Positions 11,759-46,730 of a DNA stretch of 64,000 nucleotides are shown in pieces. Under the pieces are notes generated by a model that was not told the DNA's origin, searched no databases, and saw only the letters and a program-made list of their open reading frames with translations. Every line of letters begins with the position of its first letter. The first letter of the stretch is position 1. The translations under genes were made by a program, and so were the position numbers. Source of the stretch: Escherichia phage PSD2002. The stretch lies in sequence record OK335775.1, one strand, 5' to 3'.

Positions 11759-11827
11759 ACCACCCGGTTTAATTGAAAGGCAAAGTCCTTGATTCATTAT
11801 ACCGTCGAAAATTTAAAGCAAAAAAGT

Positions 11828-42433: not shown

Positions 42434-43381
42434 ATGAACGATTTAGATTTTTTACTTCCTGAAGAAGACCAACAAAAAGATGGATTTTTACTCCTAGATT
42501 TCAGCCAAATCATTATGGCTGCAGCTTTCCAAGAGTTTGGTGAGAATGCTGGATTTCCTAAAGTAACTACAGCAATGCTTCGACACCTCGTGTTGAATTC
42601 AATTAAGAAAAATATTAAAGACTTTAAAAAACAGGGGTACAACCAACTGGTTATTTGTGTTGATAACTCTAAATCAGGTTATTGGCGTCGTCGCTATTCA
42701 CCTTATTATAAGAAAAACCGTGCTAAGGCTCGTGAAGAATCATTATTTGATTGGGAAGGCTTATTTACGGCAATGCATATTATTGTTGATGAGCTTGAAC
42801 ATAACATGCCTTATATTGTTATGAACATCGATACTGTCGAGGCCGATGACCATATTGCTGTTTTAACCCGTATCCTTACGGCTTTAGGCCATCCTGTTAT
42901 GATCGGTTCTTCGGATGGTGACTTTACCCAACTTCATAAATTCCCTGGGGTAAAACAATGGTCTCCAATGCAGAAAAAATTCGTCAAAACAAAATCTGGC
43001 GATTCATTATTGGATTGTGTAACCAAGGTTGTTAAAGGCGACCGTAAAGATAACGTTGCGAGTATTAAAGTTCGTGGTGATTACTGGTTGACAATGGTTG
43101 AAGGCGAACGTACTCCTAGCACTCGTGCCAAGGAACTTGAAGCAATTGCTCTTAATTATTACGACCATGATATAATTAAAACACTTCTTACTGAAGAACA
43201 ATATGAACGTTTCTGTGAAAACCAAATCTTAATTGATATGGACTTTATTCCAGATGATATTGTTGCTTTAATTACTGAAAGATATAATACGTATAACAAA
43301 CCTTCGAAATCTAAAGTTTATCCTTATTTCGTTAAATCTGGTTTGTCTAAACTAACCGCTACAGTAGCTGATTTTTATTAA
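42434..43381 (+). CDS. rnh: RNase H (5'-3' exonuclease, FEN-like)
   Basis: 315 aa; LLDFSQI, SGYWRR..YYKKNR.KAREES, EADDHIAVL, SSDGDFTQLHK motifs match T4 RNase H. Confidence 0.9.
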   Translation: MNDLDFLLPEEDQQKDGFLLLDFSQIIMAAAFQEFGENAGFPKVTTAMLRHLVLNSIKKNIKDFKKQGYNQLVICVDNSKSGYWRRRYSPYYKKNRAKAREESLFDWEGLFTAMHIIVDELEHNMPYIVMNIDTVEADDHIAVLTRILTALGHPVMIGSSDGDFTQLHKFPGVKQWSPMQKKFVKTKSGDSLLDCVTKVVKGDRKDNVASIKVRGDYWLTMVEGERTPSTRAKELEAIALNYYDHDIIKTLLTEEQYERFCENQILIDMDFIPDDIVALITERYNTYNKPSKSKVYPYFVKSGLSKLTATVADFY

Positions 43382-43661: not shown

Positions 43662-43944
43662 TTTTGATGGAGCGGTTAATACCGCTTCCGAACCTGTCCA
43701 TGTATTGGTAAATAAACAACAGAATGGTCTCGATATTGAGGCCTTTGTTGAGGCTGAAGGTTGTAGCTACCTCGAAGCGGCTACCGCATGGTTGGAAGAG
43801 AACAGCATCCCTGAAGGTAACTTTGCTCGTTATTTGCCTGCAGGAATTATTGATAAAATTATGAACGAAGCCATTGATGATAACTTGCTTCGACCTTCAA
43901 TGGCTCGAACGCAAAAAACTAATACTCTGGATTTCTTGTTATGA
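43642..43944 (+). CDS. 33: Gp33 late-transcription co-activator
   Basis: 100 aa; SYLEA.TA.LEENSIPE...LLRPS....KTNTLDFLL matches T4 gp33 C-terminal half. Confidence 0.8.
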   Translation: MTQSLNDFDGAVNTASEPVHVLVNKQQNGLDIEAFVEAEGCSYLEAATAWLEENSIPEGNFARYLPAGIIDKIMNEAIDDNLLRPSMARTQKTNTLDFLL

Positions 43945-44594
43945 TTAAGATTCGCATGCCACCAAACAATAACCGTATGGTGAATGGTAAGAGCGTATAT
44001 TCACTATACTTAATGCTCAAACATCACTTCAATGCCAAATACGACGTTATAAAATATAACTGGGTCATGCGAATCTCTGATACGGCTTATCAAAAACGTC
44101 GTGACAAATATTTCTTTGAGAAATTGAGTGATAAATACACTTTGAAAGAGCTTGCTCTTATCTTCATGAGTAACTTGGTGGCTAACCAAGACGCATGGAT
44201 TGGCGACATCAGTGATGCTGACGCCTTAGTCTTTTACCGAGAATATATCGGTAGACTTAAAAGAATAAAACAAGTTTTTGAGGATGATATCAAAAACATC
44301 TATTATTTCAGTAAGAAAGTGGAAGTTAAAGCGCTTTCTGAAATTTTTGATTATAATAAAAAAGTTAACTCGAGCTATATTTTTAAGCTCCTTCAATCGA
44401 ATGTTATTTCATTCGAAACGTTTATTTTGCTTGATTCATTTATGGATATAATTGATAAACATGATGAACAGACCAACGATTTAGTGTGGTCTAAGTATTC
44501 GACTAAATTAAATGCTTACAAAAAAATTCTTATAGTAGATTCTATTGAGGCTCGTAAATTGTTCATTGAAACAATTAAGGGTTGTAAATTTTGA
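43941..44594 (+). CDS. 59: Gp59 helicase loader
   Basis: 217 aa between 33 and 32; size and position as T4 gp59. Confidence 0.8.
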   Translation: MIKIRMPPNNNRMVNGKSVYSLYLMLKHHFNAKYDVIKYNWVMRISDTAYQKRRDKYFFEKLSDKYTLKELALIFMSNLVANQDAWIGDISDADALVFYREYIGRLKRIKQVFEDDIKNIYYFSKKVEVKALSEIFDYNKKVNSSYIFKLLQSNVISFETFILLDSFMDIIDKHDEQTNDLVWSKYSTKLNAYKKILIVDSIEARKLFIETIKGCKF

Positions 44595-45226
44595 ATATAG
44601 TTTATAAAATGACTTGGCTTAATCGTCAGGCTAATAATATTAAGCCGTTTTCGTACATAGGTTCTAAAACTAATTGTACTTTTGAAAATGGCGTGATTAT
44701 TGACTGTAAAGGTAAAGAGTATTGGACCTCTTGCGAGCAATCAAGATTTAAAGAGGCCATCGAAGAAGAAAAACCTATTGTTGAAATTTTGGCTATAACG
44801 CCATTTGATATTGTTATTAATATTGAACGTTCAGAACAATTGGAAGTTCAAGCTAGAGATAATGATGATTATTTTAATTTGGTTTATGCCGGTGGCGGAT
44901 TTGGAGTCTTTGGATGCACTCACCCAGCCAAACGTCCTGAAGTTAGAGCCCATATGAAAGCTGCTAACTATATGAATCAACCCGATTACCGTCCTTGGAA
45001 AACTTCTAGAGCAAACCCTTTAGATTGGATGCTTAGTGATATTGCTTATACTAATTATTGTATAATTAATTCTAGTGGAAGAGCTTGTGGATGGAGGCGT
45101 CTCATTAACTCTGGTATAAATGTTAGTGAAACTACATCAAAGAGTATGATTAAACAATTTAATGAGGGTTGGATTCCTAATGATGACCCTGAATTCATTA
45201 AGTTAAAAATGCTTTATTCGAAGTGA
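44591..45226 (+). CDS. Putative GIY-YIG-like (Seg-type) homing endonuclease, possibly degenerate
   Basis: ORF between 59 and 32, where T4 carries segG; N-terminal IVYK...(15 aa)...YIGSK pattern if TTG 44591 is the start (alternative ATG 44609); AT-rich; canonical downstream Arg/His/Glu catalytic residues not clearly seen. Confidence 0.4.
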   Translation: MNIVYKMTWLNRQANNIKPFSYIGSKTNCTFENGVIIDCKGKEYWTSCEQSRFKEAIEEEKPIVEILAITPFDIVINIERSEQLEVQARDNDDYFNLVYAGGGFGVFGCTHPAKRPEVRAHMKAANYMNQPDYRPWKTSRANPLDWMLSDIAYTNYCIINSSGRACGWRRLINSGINVSETTSKSMIKQFNEGWIPNDDPEFIKLKMLYSK

Positions 45227-45234
45227 TATATAAT
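45210..45234 (+). promoter_or_regulatory. Middle promoter (MotA box) for gene 32
   Basis: TGCTTTA at 45210-45216, 12 bp spacer, TATAAT at 45229-45234; lies within the 3' end of the GIY-YIG-like ORF. Confidence 0.55.
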
Positions 45235-45324
45235 TACTTCATCTTCAAAACCTAGTTATCAAGGTAAACGTGATAACAACAACTGTTAATAAATTTATTA
45301 AATATATCAAATAAGGTAAATAAT
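45235..45324 (+). promoter_or_regulatory. Gene 32 5' leader (candidate autoregulatory translational operator)
   Basis: Extremely A/U-rich, apparently unstructured leader preceding gene 32; in T4 gp32 represses its own translation by binding such a leader. Confidence 0.45.
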
Positions 45325-46236
45325 ATGTCTATGTTTAAACGCCGTAATCCTGCTGAACTTGCTGCTCAACTGTCTGCAATGAAAGGTGGCTCTTCTTTCT
45401 CGTCTGATGACAAATCCGAATGGAAATTGAAAGATGACAATGGCGTAGGAACCGCAGTTATTCGATTCCTTCCTTCGAAAAACGAAGCTAATCCATCCCC
45501 ATTCGTTAAGCTTGTTAACCATGGTTTTAAGAAAAATGGTCAGTGGTATATCGAATCATGTACGTCTACTCATGGTGATTTCGATTCATGTCCTGTATGT
45601 AAATACATGAACCAGAATGATACCTTTAATACTAATAATGCCGAATACAAACTGATGAAACGTAAAACTTCCTTCTGGGCTAACATCCTTGTTATTAAGG
45701 ATAGTGCAGTGCCTGCTAACGAAGGTAAAGTGTTTAAATTCCGTTTCGGTCAGAAAATTATGGATAAAATCAACCAGATGGTTGAAGTTGATACCGATAT
45801 TGGTGAAGTGCCGGTTGACGTAACATGTCCGTTTGATGGTGCGAACTTCGTACTGAAATCTAAGAAAGTTGGCGACTTCAAGAACTATGACGATTCCAAA
45901 TTCATGGGTCAGTCTGAAATTCCTAACATCAATGATGAAGCTTACCAAGCTAAATTGATGGAAGAAATGCACGACCTTTCTAAACTGCTCGATTTCAAAT
46001 CATTCGAAACTAACGAAGCCAAGTTTAAGAAAGTTGTTGGTACAGCTGCTCTTGGTGGTGCTGCCGCTAAAGCTTCTGCAGCCGCTGATAAGATTGGTGA
46101 TGACCTGGACGCATTCAGTGCAGACCTTGATGCATATGATTCTAAACCATCTACACCGACTCGTTCCACTACTCCTGAGCCGTCAGTAAGTCCTTCTGAT
46201 GACGATGGTCTGGACGACCTGTTAGCTGGTCTATAA
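45325..46236 (+). CDS. 32: Gp32 single-stranded DNA-binding protein
   Basis: 303 aa; MFKRR..AELAAQ, zinc-binding C...H...C..C region, acidic C-terminal tail ending DDLLAGL; strong match to T4 gp32. Confidence 0.95.
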
Positions 46237-46252
46237 GTTATTGATTTATAAT

Positions 46253-46279
46253 GGGAAGACTTCGGTCTTCCCTTTTTGG
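46253..46279 (+). terminator. Rho-independent terminator after gene 32
   Basis: 8-bp stem GGGAAGAC-TTCG-GTCTTCCC plus TTTTTGG. Confidence 0.75.
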
Positions 46280-46288
46280 CATTTAATG

Positions 46289-46317
46289 GTTTACAACGCC
46301 TTTAAACATGATACTAT
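46289..46317 (+). promoter_or_regulatory. Early promoter cassette
   Basis: GTTTACAACGCCTTTAAACATGATACTATAGACCTATCAACTA; an identical copy begins at 46995. Confidence 0.6.
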
Positions 46318-46346
46318 AGACCTATCAACTACATGAGGAAATAAAA

Positions 46347-46730
46347 ATGGAAATCGGTAAAAAATACGAACTTCGTCCTGAGCGTATCAAAGCTTTTATT
46401 AATATCACCCCTATCAATAATAACGATATGGTGGATATTATCCAAGACAATGGTGGTTGGTTTGAAGTAAAGGATACGATGACCTCGGATGGGGATAAAT
46501 TTGTAACTAAAATCAAATGTGCGAATGGTAAGATTTTTAGTGCAGACGGGACACTAGAGGAATATTTTGAATTGCATGAAGATGAGTTCTATTGCTTCCG
46601 TGAATGTGCTGAACAAGACGAAGTTGACGAACCCGTTACTAAGGTGGGCGTGACTCAAATCCATTGCATTGTTACCGAACAGAACGTTGACCAAATCATT
46701 GAACTTTTGCAAAAAACTTTTAAGGCCTAA
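46347..46730 (+). CDS. Hypothetical protein
   Basis: 127-aa ORF after promoter cassette and GAGGAAA. Confidence 0.45.
   Translation: MEIGKKYELRPERIKAFINITPINNNDMVDIIQDNGGWFEVKDTMTSDGDKFVTKIKCANGKIFSADGTLEEYFELHEDEFYCFRECAEQDEVDEPVTKVGVTQIHCIVTEQNVDQIIELLQKTFKA

Follow-up and report, generated by a model that had tools for sequence, protein, structure and literature searches.

The window, by which we mean the whole 64,000-nt stretch of the Escherichia phage PSD2002 genome analyzed here (record OK335775.1), carries the gene series rnh-dsbA-33-59-ORF-32, the same order that is found in T4. The ORF (positions 44591 to 45226, plus strand; 211 aa, TTG start, TGA stop) was recognized from the ORF list and by homology as a segG-like homing endonuclease gene, and it is free-standing and in the same orientation as its neighbors. 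It lies between gene 59 (43941 to 44594) and gene 32, the ssDNA-binding protein gene (45325 to 46236, plus strand, from the ORF list). A predicted proximal MotA-type middle promoter of gene 32 (45210 to 45234, plus strand), proposed from its consensus match and by comparison with related phages, straddles the end of the ORF. On the same strand it is followed by a predicted H-type pseudoknot that resembles the translational operator of T2/T4 gene 32 (45250 to 45277) and by an A+U-rich unstructured leader (45278 to 45324) that contains the gene 32 Shine-Dalgarno sequence, TAAGGT, at 45312 to 45317.

The frame is bounded upstream by an in-frame TAA at 44585 to 44587, the TTG shares bases with the gene 59 stop codon in TTTTGA, and the first ATG in the ORF is at 44609. 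Read from the TTG, the N terminus is M-N-I-V-Y-K followed by 15 aa and Y-I-G-S-K, so that both the coordinates and the IVYK...(15 aa)...YIGSK N terminus of the original prediction are exactly as read, and an in-frame start that keeps the GIY motif is available. The ORF had also been called AT-rich, which is true relative to the window (34.6% versus 39.5% GC) but does not set it apart from gene 59 (32.3%), beside which its composition is unremarkable.

Relationship to T4 SegG

The ORF product is 59% identical to T4 SegG (gp32.1) over its full length (72% positives; E = 3e-89), colinear over aa 1 to 208, and close to it in size (211 versus 210 aa). A tblastn search matched T4 records annotated segG with an E value of 2e-74, and PHROG 7504, "homing endonuclease," was matched end to end (E = 6e-114). 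Proteins identical to the ORF product carry homing endonuclease annotation in public records, and the VR5 record describes its counterpart as "similar to T4 SegG (gp32.1)." By sequence comparison, T4 SegG and the ORF product are orthologous along their full length, and, as had been proposed, the ORF occupies the T4 segG slot, between the same flanking genes 59 and 32. T4 SegG is a proven endonuclease with gene 32 as its target, according to passages of two papers on T4 (PMC2988022 and PMC2330249).

Over the whole length of the gene, dN/dS was 0.10 versus VR5 and 0.15 versus ZX14. These values argue for purifying selection, not decay, and together with the full-length homologs they indicate that the ORF is more than a chance reading frame. 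It was intact in every carrier examined.

Predicted domains and coding status

The N-terminal catalytic domain (44591 to 44905, plus strand; aa 1 to 105) is predicted to have the GIY-YIG fold. Its key residues, in NIVY (Y5) and YIGSK (Y22, G24, and K26) and at Y44, S47, E79, and N96, are invariant in 142 to 144 of 144 relatives and are the same in T4 SegG. The GIY-type strand is N-I-V-Y at aa 2 to 5 (Y5 in 142 relatives; strand predicted over aa 2 to 8), and the YIG-type strand is Y22-I23-G24 (Y22 and G24 in all 144; strand predicted over aa 21 to 26). Between them lie 16 residues (K6 to S21), compared with 10 to 11 in the GIY-YIG superfamily and in its archetypal nuclease, I-TevI (PDB 1LN0). 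This longer gap, which includes a short predicted helix at aa 10 to 14 bearing R12, is common to the whole Seg-type subfamily, including T4 SegG. In the AF2 model, block-mean pLDDT is 75 to 94 over aa 1 to 90, and the domain forms a three-stranded sheet with flanking helices. [quoted passage not shown] The earlier description of the ORF as GIY-YIG-like agrees with this structural match and with the orthology to SegG.

Sequence similarity between the ORF product and I-TevI was not significant: the family HMM scored 3.4 bits, hhalign returned E values of 0.095 to 0.56, and a PDB sequence search with a profile of 11 homologues found only chance matches (E of 0.7 or worse). HMM and hhalign alignments disagree on whether the counterpart of the I-TevI YVGS is YIGSK or K.YYGSS; we retained YIGSK for its agreement with the order of the predicted strands. 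In the HMM alignment, R27 and H31 of I-TevI fall opposite aa 31 to 35, where there is no conserved basic residue; in place of the I-TevI helix, this region is predicted to form a beta-hairpin with the conserved Cys29 and Cys48 on either side. The same residue pattern is seen in active T4 SegG, which likewise lacks Arg or His at this position. K26 (143/144), R12 (121/144), and K42 (105/144) are possible substitutes for the catalytic Arg. E79 (143/144) and N96 (144/144) fall opposite I-TevI E75 and N90 in an hhalign local alignment that is not significant (Prob 0.6%, E = 0.095), with a spacing of 17 aa versus 15 in I-TevI. The catalytic Arg, His, and Glu had been described as not obvious, a statement that stands for Arg and His.

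Pfam and NCBIfam scans of the ORF product gave no GIY-YIG match, and no match at all, and the same was true of T4 SegG, used as a positive control. Because that proven endonuclease has no match either, we do not count the missing one against GIY-YIG membership. Profile searches of the kind suggested in the original prediction were thus positive with PHROG and negative with Pfam and NCBIfam. Among 128 relatives of the N-terminal domain, 7 match Pfam PF19835 (SegE_GIY-YIG) and 81 carry NUMOD3.

The C-terminal helical domain (44936 to 45223, plus strand; aa 116 to 211) is probably a DNA-binding module of the helix-turn-helix type. Its conserved motifs are GWRR and KSM..F..GW.P, and beyond EFIKLK neither the sequence nor the length of the tail is constant. 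Unlike I-TevI, which is intron encoded, the window gene is free-standing, and its product has neither a zinc finger nor NUMOD3 in this domain.

Two alternative readings would leave the locus without a nuclease. Translation could begin at ATG 44609, giving a shorter protein of 205 aa that lacks the GIY strand. TTG is a weak initiator, ATG initiates more strongly, and the RefSeq entries for Bp7, AnYang, and VR5 are annotated from the ATG equivalent to 44609. However, direct reading of the sequence found no Shine-Dalgarno sequence 5' of ATG 44609, whereas a Shine-Dalgarno-like AAGGG (44577 to 44581) lies 9 nt 5' of the TTG. The codon homologous to TTG 44591 is the initiating ATG of T4 segG, and it is TTG in ZX14 and NC-G, which have no alternative ATG at the internal position downstream and are annotated from the TTG. 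The strand that would be lost is also conserved, with V4 present in 131 of the 144 relatives in addition to Y5, and the N-I-V-Y codons of the window, VR5, ZX14, and T4 differ only synonymously. We consider the shorter protein very unlikely and regard the RefSeq starts, which discard the GIY strand, as an annotation error. It is harder still to credit the gene as a degenerate remnant, an inactive endonuclease that survives only as the carrier of the gene 32 promoter. Such a remnant would fit the weak TTG start, the canonical catalytic position without Arg or His, and the missing Pfam GIY-YIG match, and the promoter overlap would penalize deletion, an argument made in a review of T4 (PMC2988022). 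Against this, the low dN/dS extends across the full length and not the promoter-proximal part alone, no carrier has a broken ORF, and the family-invariant residues are all present and identical to those of active T4 SegG, itself without a Pfam match. With the promoter overlap confined to the final ~17 nt, 630 nt of coding conservation cannot be explained by promoter selection. The suggestion that the endonuclease is divergent or inactive is not upheld by this purifying selection or by the occurrence of the same residues in active T4 SegG and all 144 relatives.

Distribution and flanking divergence

The gene is patchily distributed among close relatives, as is segG of T4. At least 80% of a 59-ORF-32 query was covered in only 12 of 379 matching records, and at least 80% of the corresponding T4 59-segG-32 query, a coverage that requires segG, in only 141 of 691 matching T4-type records. 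Comparison of the 59-32 interval among relatives, which the original prediction had put forward as a check, found the ORF in some and not in JS98, JS10, WG01, or QL01, in which the flanks are 96 to 97% identical to those of the window. JS98 could be a precise-deletion derivative and not an empty ancestral site.

Divergence from JS98, which lacks the homing endonuclease gene (HEG), is concentrated beside the ORF. The last ~60 nt of gene 59 (44533 to 44590, plus strand, delimited by mismatch bins) contain 13 mismatches in the final 60-nt bin, compared with 0 to 2 in each of the preceding eight bins. On the other side, gene 32 has 18, 6, 11, and 9 mismatches per 60 nt over 45325 to 45561 and 0 to 3 beyond. 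Substitutions at nt ~118 to 240 of gene 32 are common to the window, Bp7, and VR5, all SegG carriers, and absent from NC-G, 04086, and JS98. Judging from these differences, the first ~240 nt of gene 32 form a SegG-linked haplotype and are the likely region of the endonuclease target or immunity polymorphism. We interpret the divergent end of gene 59 as a co-conversion tract or an HEG-linked haplotype. Divergence beside the ORF is compatible with what is expected after homing, and ordinary mosaic recombination could also have produced it. Liu et al. are said to have found in 2003 that T4 SegG cuts T2 gene 32 at 332 bp from the insertion site. A comparison of the T4 and T6 flanks showed no divergence tract and is therefore uninformative on the T4 cleavage site. 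An operator-like copy of the gene 32 target near the endonuclease gene, considered by analogy with I-TevI autorepression, was rejected; when 20-mers from 44400 to 45324 were compared with the first 450 nt of JS98 gene 32, the best matched at 15 to 16 of 20 positions, the same as shuffled sequences.

A second Seg-type allele occupies the same slot in NC-G, 04086, MHG19, and other phages. Like the window ORF, it begins with a TTG that overlaps the gene 59 stop and runs at its 3' end into a MotA promoter, and its 209-aa product is similar over the N-terminal ~60 aa. It differs in being only 30% identical overall (E = 6e-25) and in lacking the SegG signature ARDN.DYFNLVYAGGGFG. This allele is linked to the JS98-like gene 32 haplotype at nt ~118 to 240 and so probably recognizes a different target.

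Promoters and leader of gene 32

MotA boxes have the consensus (a/t)(a/t)(a/t)TGCTTtA and lie 12 ± 1 bp upstream of a sigma-70 -10 element, TAnnnT. In the predicted proximal promoter, a MotA box, TGCTTTA (45210 to 45216), is preceded by AAA and separated by a 12-nt spacer from the -10 hexamer, TATAAT (45229 to 45234). The box lies within the last five codons of the ORF, 115 nt upstream of gene 32; the TGA stop (45224 to 45226) falls in the spacer, and the -10 hexamer begins 3 nt past it. The original prediction had placed this TGCTTTA-12 bp-TATAAT promoter within the 3' end of the ORF, and its coordinates and the overlap were confirmed, although what lies inside is limited to the MotA box and some of the spacer. 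Strict TGCTTTA-N12-TATAAT occurs 3 times in the window versus 0.01 expected, and a looser MotA pattern occurs 12 times versus 3.1 expected.

Equivalent promoters are found 89 to 115 nt upstream of gene 32 in JS98, NC-G, 04086, VR5, and T6. At the empty junctions of JS98 and T6 (the latter with a T2-type leader), the MotA box follows the gene 59 stop after 0 to 1 nt, whereas in the window 619 nt of endonuclease gene intervene. JS98 has TGCTTCA-N12-TAATAT directly after the gene 59 TAA, 90 nt from the gene 32 ATG, and T6 has the TAA, one T, and then TGCTTAT-N11-TATAAT, 98 nt from gene 32. Where an HEG is present, the codon phase of the MotA box is 2 in the window, 1 in VR5, and 3 in NC-G. Since it is read in three frames in three HEG variants, the box appears to be conserved as DNA and not as protein. 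This and the equivalent promoters of HEG-less phages suggest that the gene 32 promoter is most likely ancestral, with the endonuclease ORF extending into it, and was not created by co-option. The proposal that an endonuclease gene was co-opted as regulatory DNA is thereby probably reversed.

Three further promoter-like sites were located on the plus strand by pattern matching or position. A distal MotA-type site, TGCTTGA-N12-TATAAT (44428 to 44452), lies in the 3' part of gene 59, 163 nt 5' of the endonuclease start. It has the same position in JS98, Bp7, AnYang, NC-G, T4, UTI-K1, MHG19, and T6, with or without an HEG, is variant in 04086, and has no match in VR5 or ZX14. We take it as a candidate origin for transcripts of segG plus gene 32; in T4, the gene upstream of segG has the segG promoter in its 3' region (PMC2988022). 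An internal MotA-like site, TGCTTAT-N11-TATAAT (45043 to 45066), lies 282 nt upstream of gene 32 and has homologous sites at 236 nt in T4, 276 nt in VR5, and 222 nt in ZX14. It is the positional homologue, putative here, of the middle-promoter-like site in T4 segG, and in phage ASO78A the T4-type site carries a middle promoter annotation. Finally, TATAAATG (45115 to 45122) matches the T4 late-promoter consensus TATAAATA at 7 of 8 positions and is a weak late promoter candidate for gene 32. Exact TATAAATA occurs in the 3' parts of segG in T4 (158 nt before gene 32) and ZX14 (150 nt), in T4 at the same codons as TATAAATG in the window when the sequences are compared by eye. No exact copy is present in 44591 to 45325, and the 3' part of segG in VR5 has no late-promoter site of this type.

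The pseudoknot, identified from a predicted hairpin and an alignment, starts about 10 nt downstream of the predicted point of transcription initiation and pairs ACCU with AGGU in stem 1 and GUUAUCA with UGAUAAC in stem 2. Aligned with T4 and T6, 93% of cells are paired, compared with 23 to 48% when the sequences are slid, and 5 of 12 pairs are changed on both sides (compensatory). The minimum free energy fold of the leader is unexceptional (z = -1.36), so the prediction rests on covariation. An Rfam scan of 44400 to 46400 found no leader family, only chance snoRNA-like matches. The pseudoknot of T4 gene 32 has been described in the literature (PMC535899 and PMC3014915). At the T6 junction, promoter and operator pseudoknot follow in the same order as downstream of the window ORF, whereas the JS98 leader has no pseudoknot and instead contains repeated CTG(T/C)TAA motifs. 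Beyond the pseudoknot, the leader opens at 45278 with a conserved AACTGTTAAT that is common to T4, T6, JS98, and NC-G and, by reading of the sequences, is also present in VR5 and 04086.

Gene 32 promoter elements overlap the endonuclease coding region in both the window and T4, where segG contains both middle and late promoters of gene 32 (PMC2988022). The details differ. The T4 ATG is 1 nt past the gene 59 stop, whereas the window TTG overlaps it, and 98 nt separate the ORF end from gene 32 in the window versus 55 nt in T4. T4 has lost the proximal promoter and its segG 3' end, which has no MotA box, overlaps the pseudoknot; the window ORF reaches only the MotA box and keeps the promoter and the whole pseudoknot downstream. 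Since the T4 segG 3' end lacks the box, T4 data are not transferable to the site at 45210 to 45234.

It is conceivable that this motif does not work as a promoter and that gene 32 is transcribed from 45043, from 44428, or by read-through, as in T4, which has promoters further inside segG and no such site at its 3' end, and whose internal site is homologous to that at 45043. We regard this as quite unlikely, given the perfect consensus match, including the A/T triplet and the 12-nt spacer, at a frequency of 0.01 expected, the conservation at the DNA level, both across three frames and in genomes without an HEG, with no change in the distance to gene 32, and the position just 5' of the operator pseudoknot. 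A further possibility is that promoter and leader traveled with the HEG as one cassette that supplied regulatory DNA to gene 32. The promoter and pseudoknot of the window are indeed unlike those of JS98, with its different MotA box and -10 element and no pseudoknot, this promoter and leader type accompanies the SegG-type HEG in Bp7, AnYang, and VR5, and the flanks look co-converted. However, 04086 combines the other HEG type with a pseudoknot leader and NC-G combines it with a JS98 leader, from which it follows that HEG and leader assort independently, and in T6, which has no HEG, promoter and pseudoknot are laid out in the same way. Were the promoter co-converted, it would still be the donor's gene 32 element and not an endonuclease-derived one. 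A cassette origin therefore seems improbable to us.

The explanation that we hold to be very probable is that the ORF is a functional ortholog of T4 segG, a free-standing GIY-YIG HEG in a JS98-like (Dhakavirus) T4-type phage that reads into an ancestral promoter. On this explanation, segG would be transcribed within the gene 59 message from upstream promoters, including the MotA-type site at 44428, and translated at a low level from the TTG that overlaps the gene 59 stop. During coinfection with an HEG-less relative, the enzyme would cut gene 32 of that relative, and repair from the HEG-carrying genome would copy segG together with its flanks, leaving divergent tracts on both sides, over the final 60 nt of gene 59 and the initial ~240 nt of gene 32. 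The element at 45210 to 45234 would be the ancestral proximal MotA/AsiA-dependent middle promoter of gene 32, into which the endonuclease frame simply extends, with transcripts starting ~10 nt 5' of the T4-like operator pseudoknot.

SegG, its location, its mobility, and gene 32 promoters inside segG are already known T4 biology, so the locus has little discovery value and is instead a useful comparative data point. In the window, the HEG stands upstream of an intact ancestral promoter and pseudoknot and reads only into the MotA box. The T4 state is more derived, with the promoter lost and the ORF reading into the pseudoknot. Side by side, the two illustrate how a selfish gene becomes entangled, step by step, with the regulation of an essential gene.

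We also speculate, in two separate proposals that we rate as possible but doubtful, that the SegG-type N-terminal domain may have a rewired GIY-YIG active site and that two alleles may compete at the 59/32 junction. In this domain, which is common to about 230 protein clusters, the Arg/His helix of I-TevI may have been replaced by the beta-hairpin between the two conserved cysteines, and the catalytic basic residue may then be supplied by Lys26 of YIGSK or by Arg12 of the enlarged GIY-YIG loop. At the junction in Dhakaviruses, the two Seg-type alleles may be in competition, each bringing with it its own gene 32 5' haplotype and operator type, with a pseudoknot or without one. If this is true, homing would reshuffle the autoregulation of an essential gene.

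Identity and start of the ORF between genes 59 and 32

The window derives from a JS98-like, T4-type phage of the genus Dhakavirus, and phages LHE83, MX01, and Bp7 match its region 43900-45400 at 98-99% identity. On the + strand, rnh (42434-43381) is followed by dsbA, gene 33, gene 59 (43941-44594), an ORF of 211 codons (44591-45226), and gene 32 (45325-46236). The ORF is AT-rich, but not more so than gene 59 (34.6% versus 32.3% GC). It matches PHROGs family 7504, annotated as "homing endonuclease," end to end (E 6e-114), and a translated search of phage genomes aligned it with T4 segG at 59% identity over residues 1-208 (pairwise BLASTP, E 3e-89). In T4, segG likewise lies between genes 59 and 32. 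The VR5 record labels its own copy "similar to T4 SegG (gp32.1)," and a phage PSD2002 protein identical to the ORF product is named homing endonuclease. The original identification of a GIY-YIG-like ORF in the T4 segG slot is right. T4 SegG is a characterized GIY-YIG endonuclease that targets gene 32 and, when T4 is crossed with T2, drives the exclusion of the T2 gene 32 markers (PMC2988022; PMC2330249).

Comparative evidence favors TTG 44591, which overlaps the gene 59 stop (TTTTGA), as the start codon. The frame is limited upstream by an in-frame TAA two codons before the TTG, and its earliest ATG is at 44609. The TTG is supported by an ATG at the homologous codon of T4 segG, by TTG starts with no internal ATG as an alternative in ZX14 and NC-G, by N-I-V-Y codons whose differences between the window, VR5, ZX14, and T4 are all synonymous, and by a Shine-Dalgarno-like AAGGG 9 nt 5' of the TTG. 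The N terminus then reads MNIVYK, 15 residues, YIGSK, in agreement with the original observation. RefSeq starts the SegG orthologs of Bp7 (comparison locus L002, 2210-2827), AnYang (L003, 2889-3506), and VR5 (L011, 1910-2521) at an internal ATG, which cuts off the conserved N-I-V-Y (GIY) strand. AnYang has an additional annotated homing endonuclease gene (HEG) between genes 33 and 59 (L003, 1542-2228), unlike the window, where that junction has none.

A predicted GIY-YIG domain in an intact reading frame

Pfam and NCBIfam gave no match for the ORF, nor did a PDB sequence search; T4 SegG equally lacks a Pfam or NCBIfam match, so the missing hits come down to the limited sensitivity of the profiles. 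When 1.8 billion representatives were searched with a profile, 232 related clusters were recovered, nearly all sharing only the first ~100 residues, joined to varied C-terminal parts. Among 128 N-domain relatives, NUMOD3 was detected in 81, Pfam SegE_GIY-YIG in 7, and the I-TevI DNA-binding domain in 2; this modular architecture is typical of GIY-YIG homing enzymes. The AlphaFold model (mean pLDDT, 80.5; block means of 75-94 across residues 1-90) has the predicted order strand, strand, hairpin, helix, strand, helix, and its top-ranked, weak Foldseek hit was the I-TevI catalytic domain (1ln0_A; E 0.47). The putative GIY-YIG fold assignment of the N-domain rests on this predicted model.

Essentially invariant in 144 relatives are Y5, Y22, G24, K26, Y44, S47, E79, and N96; of these, E79 and N96 are placed against E75 and N90 of I-TevI by an hhalign alignment that is not significant. 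The GIY-to-YIG spacing of 16 residues departs from the canonical one, and no Arg or His is conserved in the family at the position of I-TevI R27/H31; the segment there, flanked by the conserved Cys29 and Cys48, is predicted to be a beta-hairpin. Active T4 SegG has exactly this residue and spacing pattern. The earlier remark that the catalytic residues are not obvious was thus correct, and describes a trait of the subfamily rather than decay. That the ORF might be divergent or inactive is not supported: dN/dS is 0.10 versus VR5 and 0.15 versus ZX14, and the frame is intact in all carriers. Across the Seg-type N-domain family (~230 clusters; amino acids 1-105, window 44591-44905), K26, Y44, and S47 are no less invariant than the residues of the classical GIY-YIG set, R12 occurs in 121 of the 144 relatives, and the canonical Arg position lacks a conserved basic residue; K26, Y44, S47, and R12 may be signs of an active site that has been rearranged.

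The predicted gene 32 promoter and the leader

A predicted MotA-type promoter (TGCTTTA, 12-nt spacer, TATAAT) lies at 45210-45234 (+). Its MotA box is within the last five ORF codons (ATG CTT TAT TCG AAG), the ORF stop TGA (45224-45226) is inside the spacer, and the -10 element begins three bases past the stop. The strict pattern occurs 3 times in the 64-kb window versus 0.01 expected, and a looser one 12 times versus 3.1. The motif at this position and the strict count confirm the original observation, and the call of a middle promoter, though predicted, appears right given the consensus match, enrichment, and equivalents upstream of gene 32 in relatives. The other two perfect sites are at 43264-43288 (+), in the 3' end of rnh just upstream of dsbA, and 11796-11820 (-).

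The accompanying proposal, that endonuclease DNA was co-opted as the gene 32 promoter, is not supported, as HEG-less phages have an equivalent site: TAA then TGCTTCA-N12-TAATAT in JS98, 90 nt from the gene 32 ATG, and TAA then T-TGCTTAT-N11-TATAAT, followed by a T2-type pseudoknot, in T6 (98 nt). In the four HEG carriers compared, the gene extends at its 3' end into this site, whether it is of SegG type (window, TGCTTTA-N12-TATAAT, 115 nt; VR5, TGCTTAA-N12-TATAAT, 110 nt) or of a second type (NC-G, TGCTTCA-N12-TAATAT, 89 nt; 04086, TGCTTCA-N12-TATAAT, 115 nt). The T of TGCTT is the second base of its codon in the window, the first in VR5, and the third in NC-G, and the protein tail past EFIKLK is variable; the motif is thus conserved as DNA, not as protein. 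T4 segG has no MotA box at its 3' end and ends within the pseudoknot (PMC535899). The most economical reading, from which we infer the direction of evolution at the junction, is that promoter and operator form a unit of gene 32 that would be older than the endonuclease gene, which would have inserted after the gene 59 stop, reading on into the MotA box; T4, with segG ending inside the pseudoknot and no 3'-terminal MotA box, would be a more derived state. Two further candidates are a MotA-like site at 45043, the positional homologue of an annotated middle promoter inside T4-type segG, and a late-promoter-like TATAAATG (7/8 match) at 45115; about as far from gene 32, T4 and ZX14 carry TATAAATA without a mismatch. 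Endonuclease activity, target site, transcription start, and MotA dependence of the window locus are all predicted.

Downstream, an H-type pseudoknot, a homologue of the gene 32 operator of T2/T4, could form at 45250-45277, with an A+U-rich leader on its 3' side. Pairing holds in 93% of cells versus 23-48% when slid, and in 5 of 12 pairs both bases have changed compared with T4 and T6, a covariation drawn from only two clades. Two leaders occur within the genus: the window type (45235-45324) has the T4-like pseudoknot, and the JS98/NC-G type (JS98 locus L001, 2196-2285) lacks this hairpin, carrying instead a CTG(T/C)TAA motif in four copies, which suggests that near-identical phages differ in their mode of gp32 autoregulation. 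Directly after gene 32 is a strong intrinsic-terminator-like hairpin at 46253-46272, GGGAAGAC-TTCG-GTCTTCCC, then a T run, and a sigma-70-like promoter (TTTACA-16-TACTAT with TG; 46290-46317) precedes a frd.2-like ORF at 46347.

Signs of mobility at the junction

The 59-32 interval varies among relatives in the presence of the ORF, which is absent from JS98, JS10, WG01, QL01, and others with flanks 96-97% identical to the window; the JS98 spacer is only 90 nt. Among T4-type phages, 691 records match the T4 59-segG-32 query, and the 141 of them with coverage of 80% or more therefore carry segG. The second Seg-type allele occupies the same slot in NC-G (L004, 2192-2821), 04086 (L013, about 1892-2512; unannotated), and MHG19 (L014, 1495-2130). 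It is only 30% identical to the window ORF, with a TTG start and an end inside the MotA promoter as in the window. HEG type and leader type assort independently, with a JS98-type leader in NC-G and a pseudoknot leader in 04086. Klebsiella phage UTI-K1 (Jiaodavirus; L008, 801-1463) has yet another endonuclease in this slot, related in its N-domain (43% identity over amino acids 1-112) but with a different, zinc-finger-like C terminus; with just 3 nt separating its stop codon from the ATG of gene 32, the endonuclease 3' end must hold the ribosome-binding site of that gene.

Counted per 60 nt, the window differs from JS98 at 13 positions in the final stretch of gene 59 and at 18, 6, 11, and 9 positions in the four stretches that open gene 32 (240 nt in all), versus 0-3 elsewhere. 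SegG-carrying Dhakaviruses have in common a gene 32 haplotype (nt ~118-240) that is missing in JS98 and carriers of the second HEG type, a pattern that fits co-conversion, target-site immunity, or both, without proving either. Cleavage by free-standing endonucleases occurs hundreds of base pairs away from the gene that encodes them, and T4 SegG reportedly cuts at a distance of 332 bp. We infer insertion rather than precise deletion in JS98. Gene 32 starts with ATGTCTATGTTT (MSMF...) in the window (45325-45330), VR5, NC-G, and 04086, and with ATGTTC/ATGTTT (MF...) in JS98 and T4; the 6-nt extension accompanies HEG-carrying Dhakaviruses.

In T4, the gene 32 middle and late promoters are located within segG, an embedding argued to favor retention of the endonuclease gene (PMC2988022), and the segG ORF was proposed to be a chimera reaching into host regulatory sequence (PMC535899). 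The finding therefore rediscovers, in another genus, a gene and an arrangement that were both known already; its geometry is slightly different from that of T4 and arguably more primitive.
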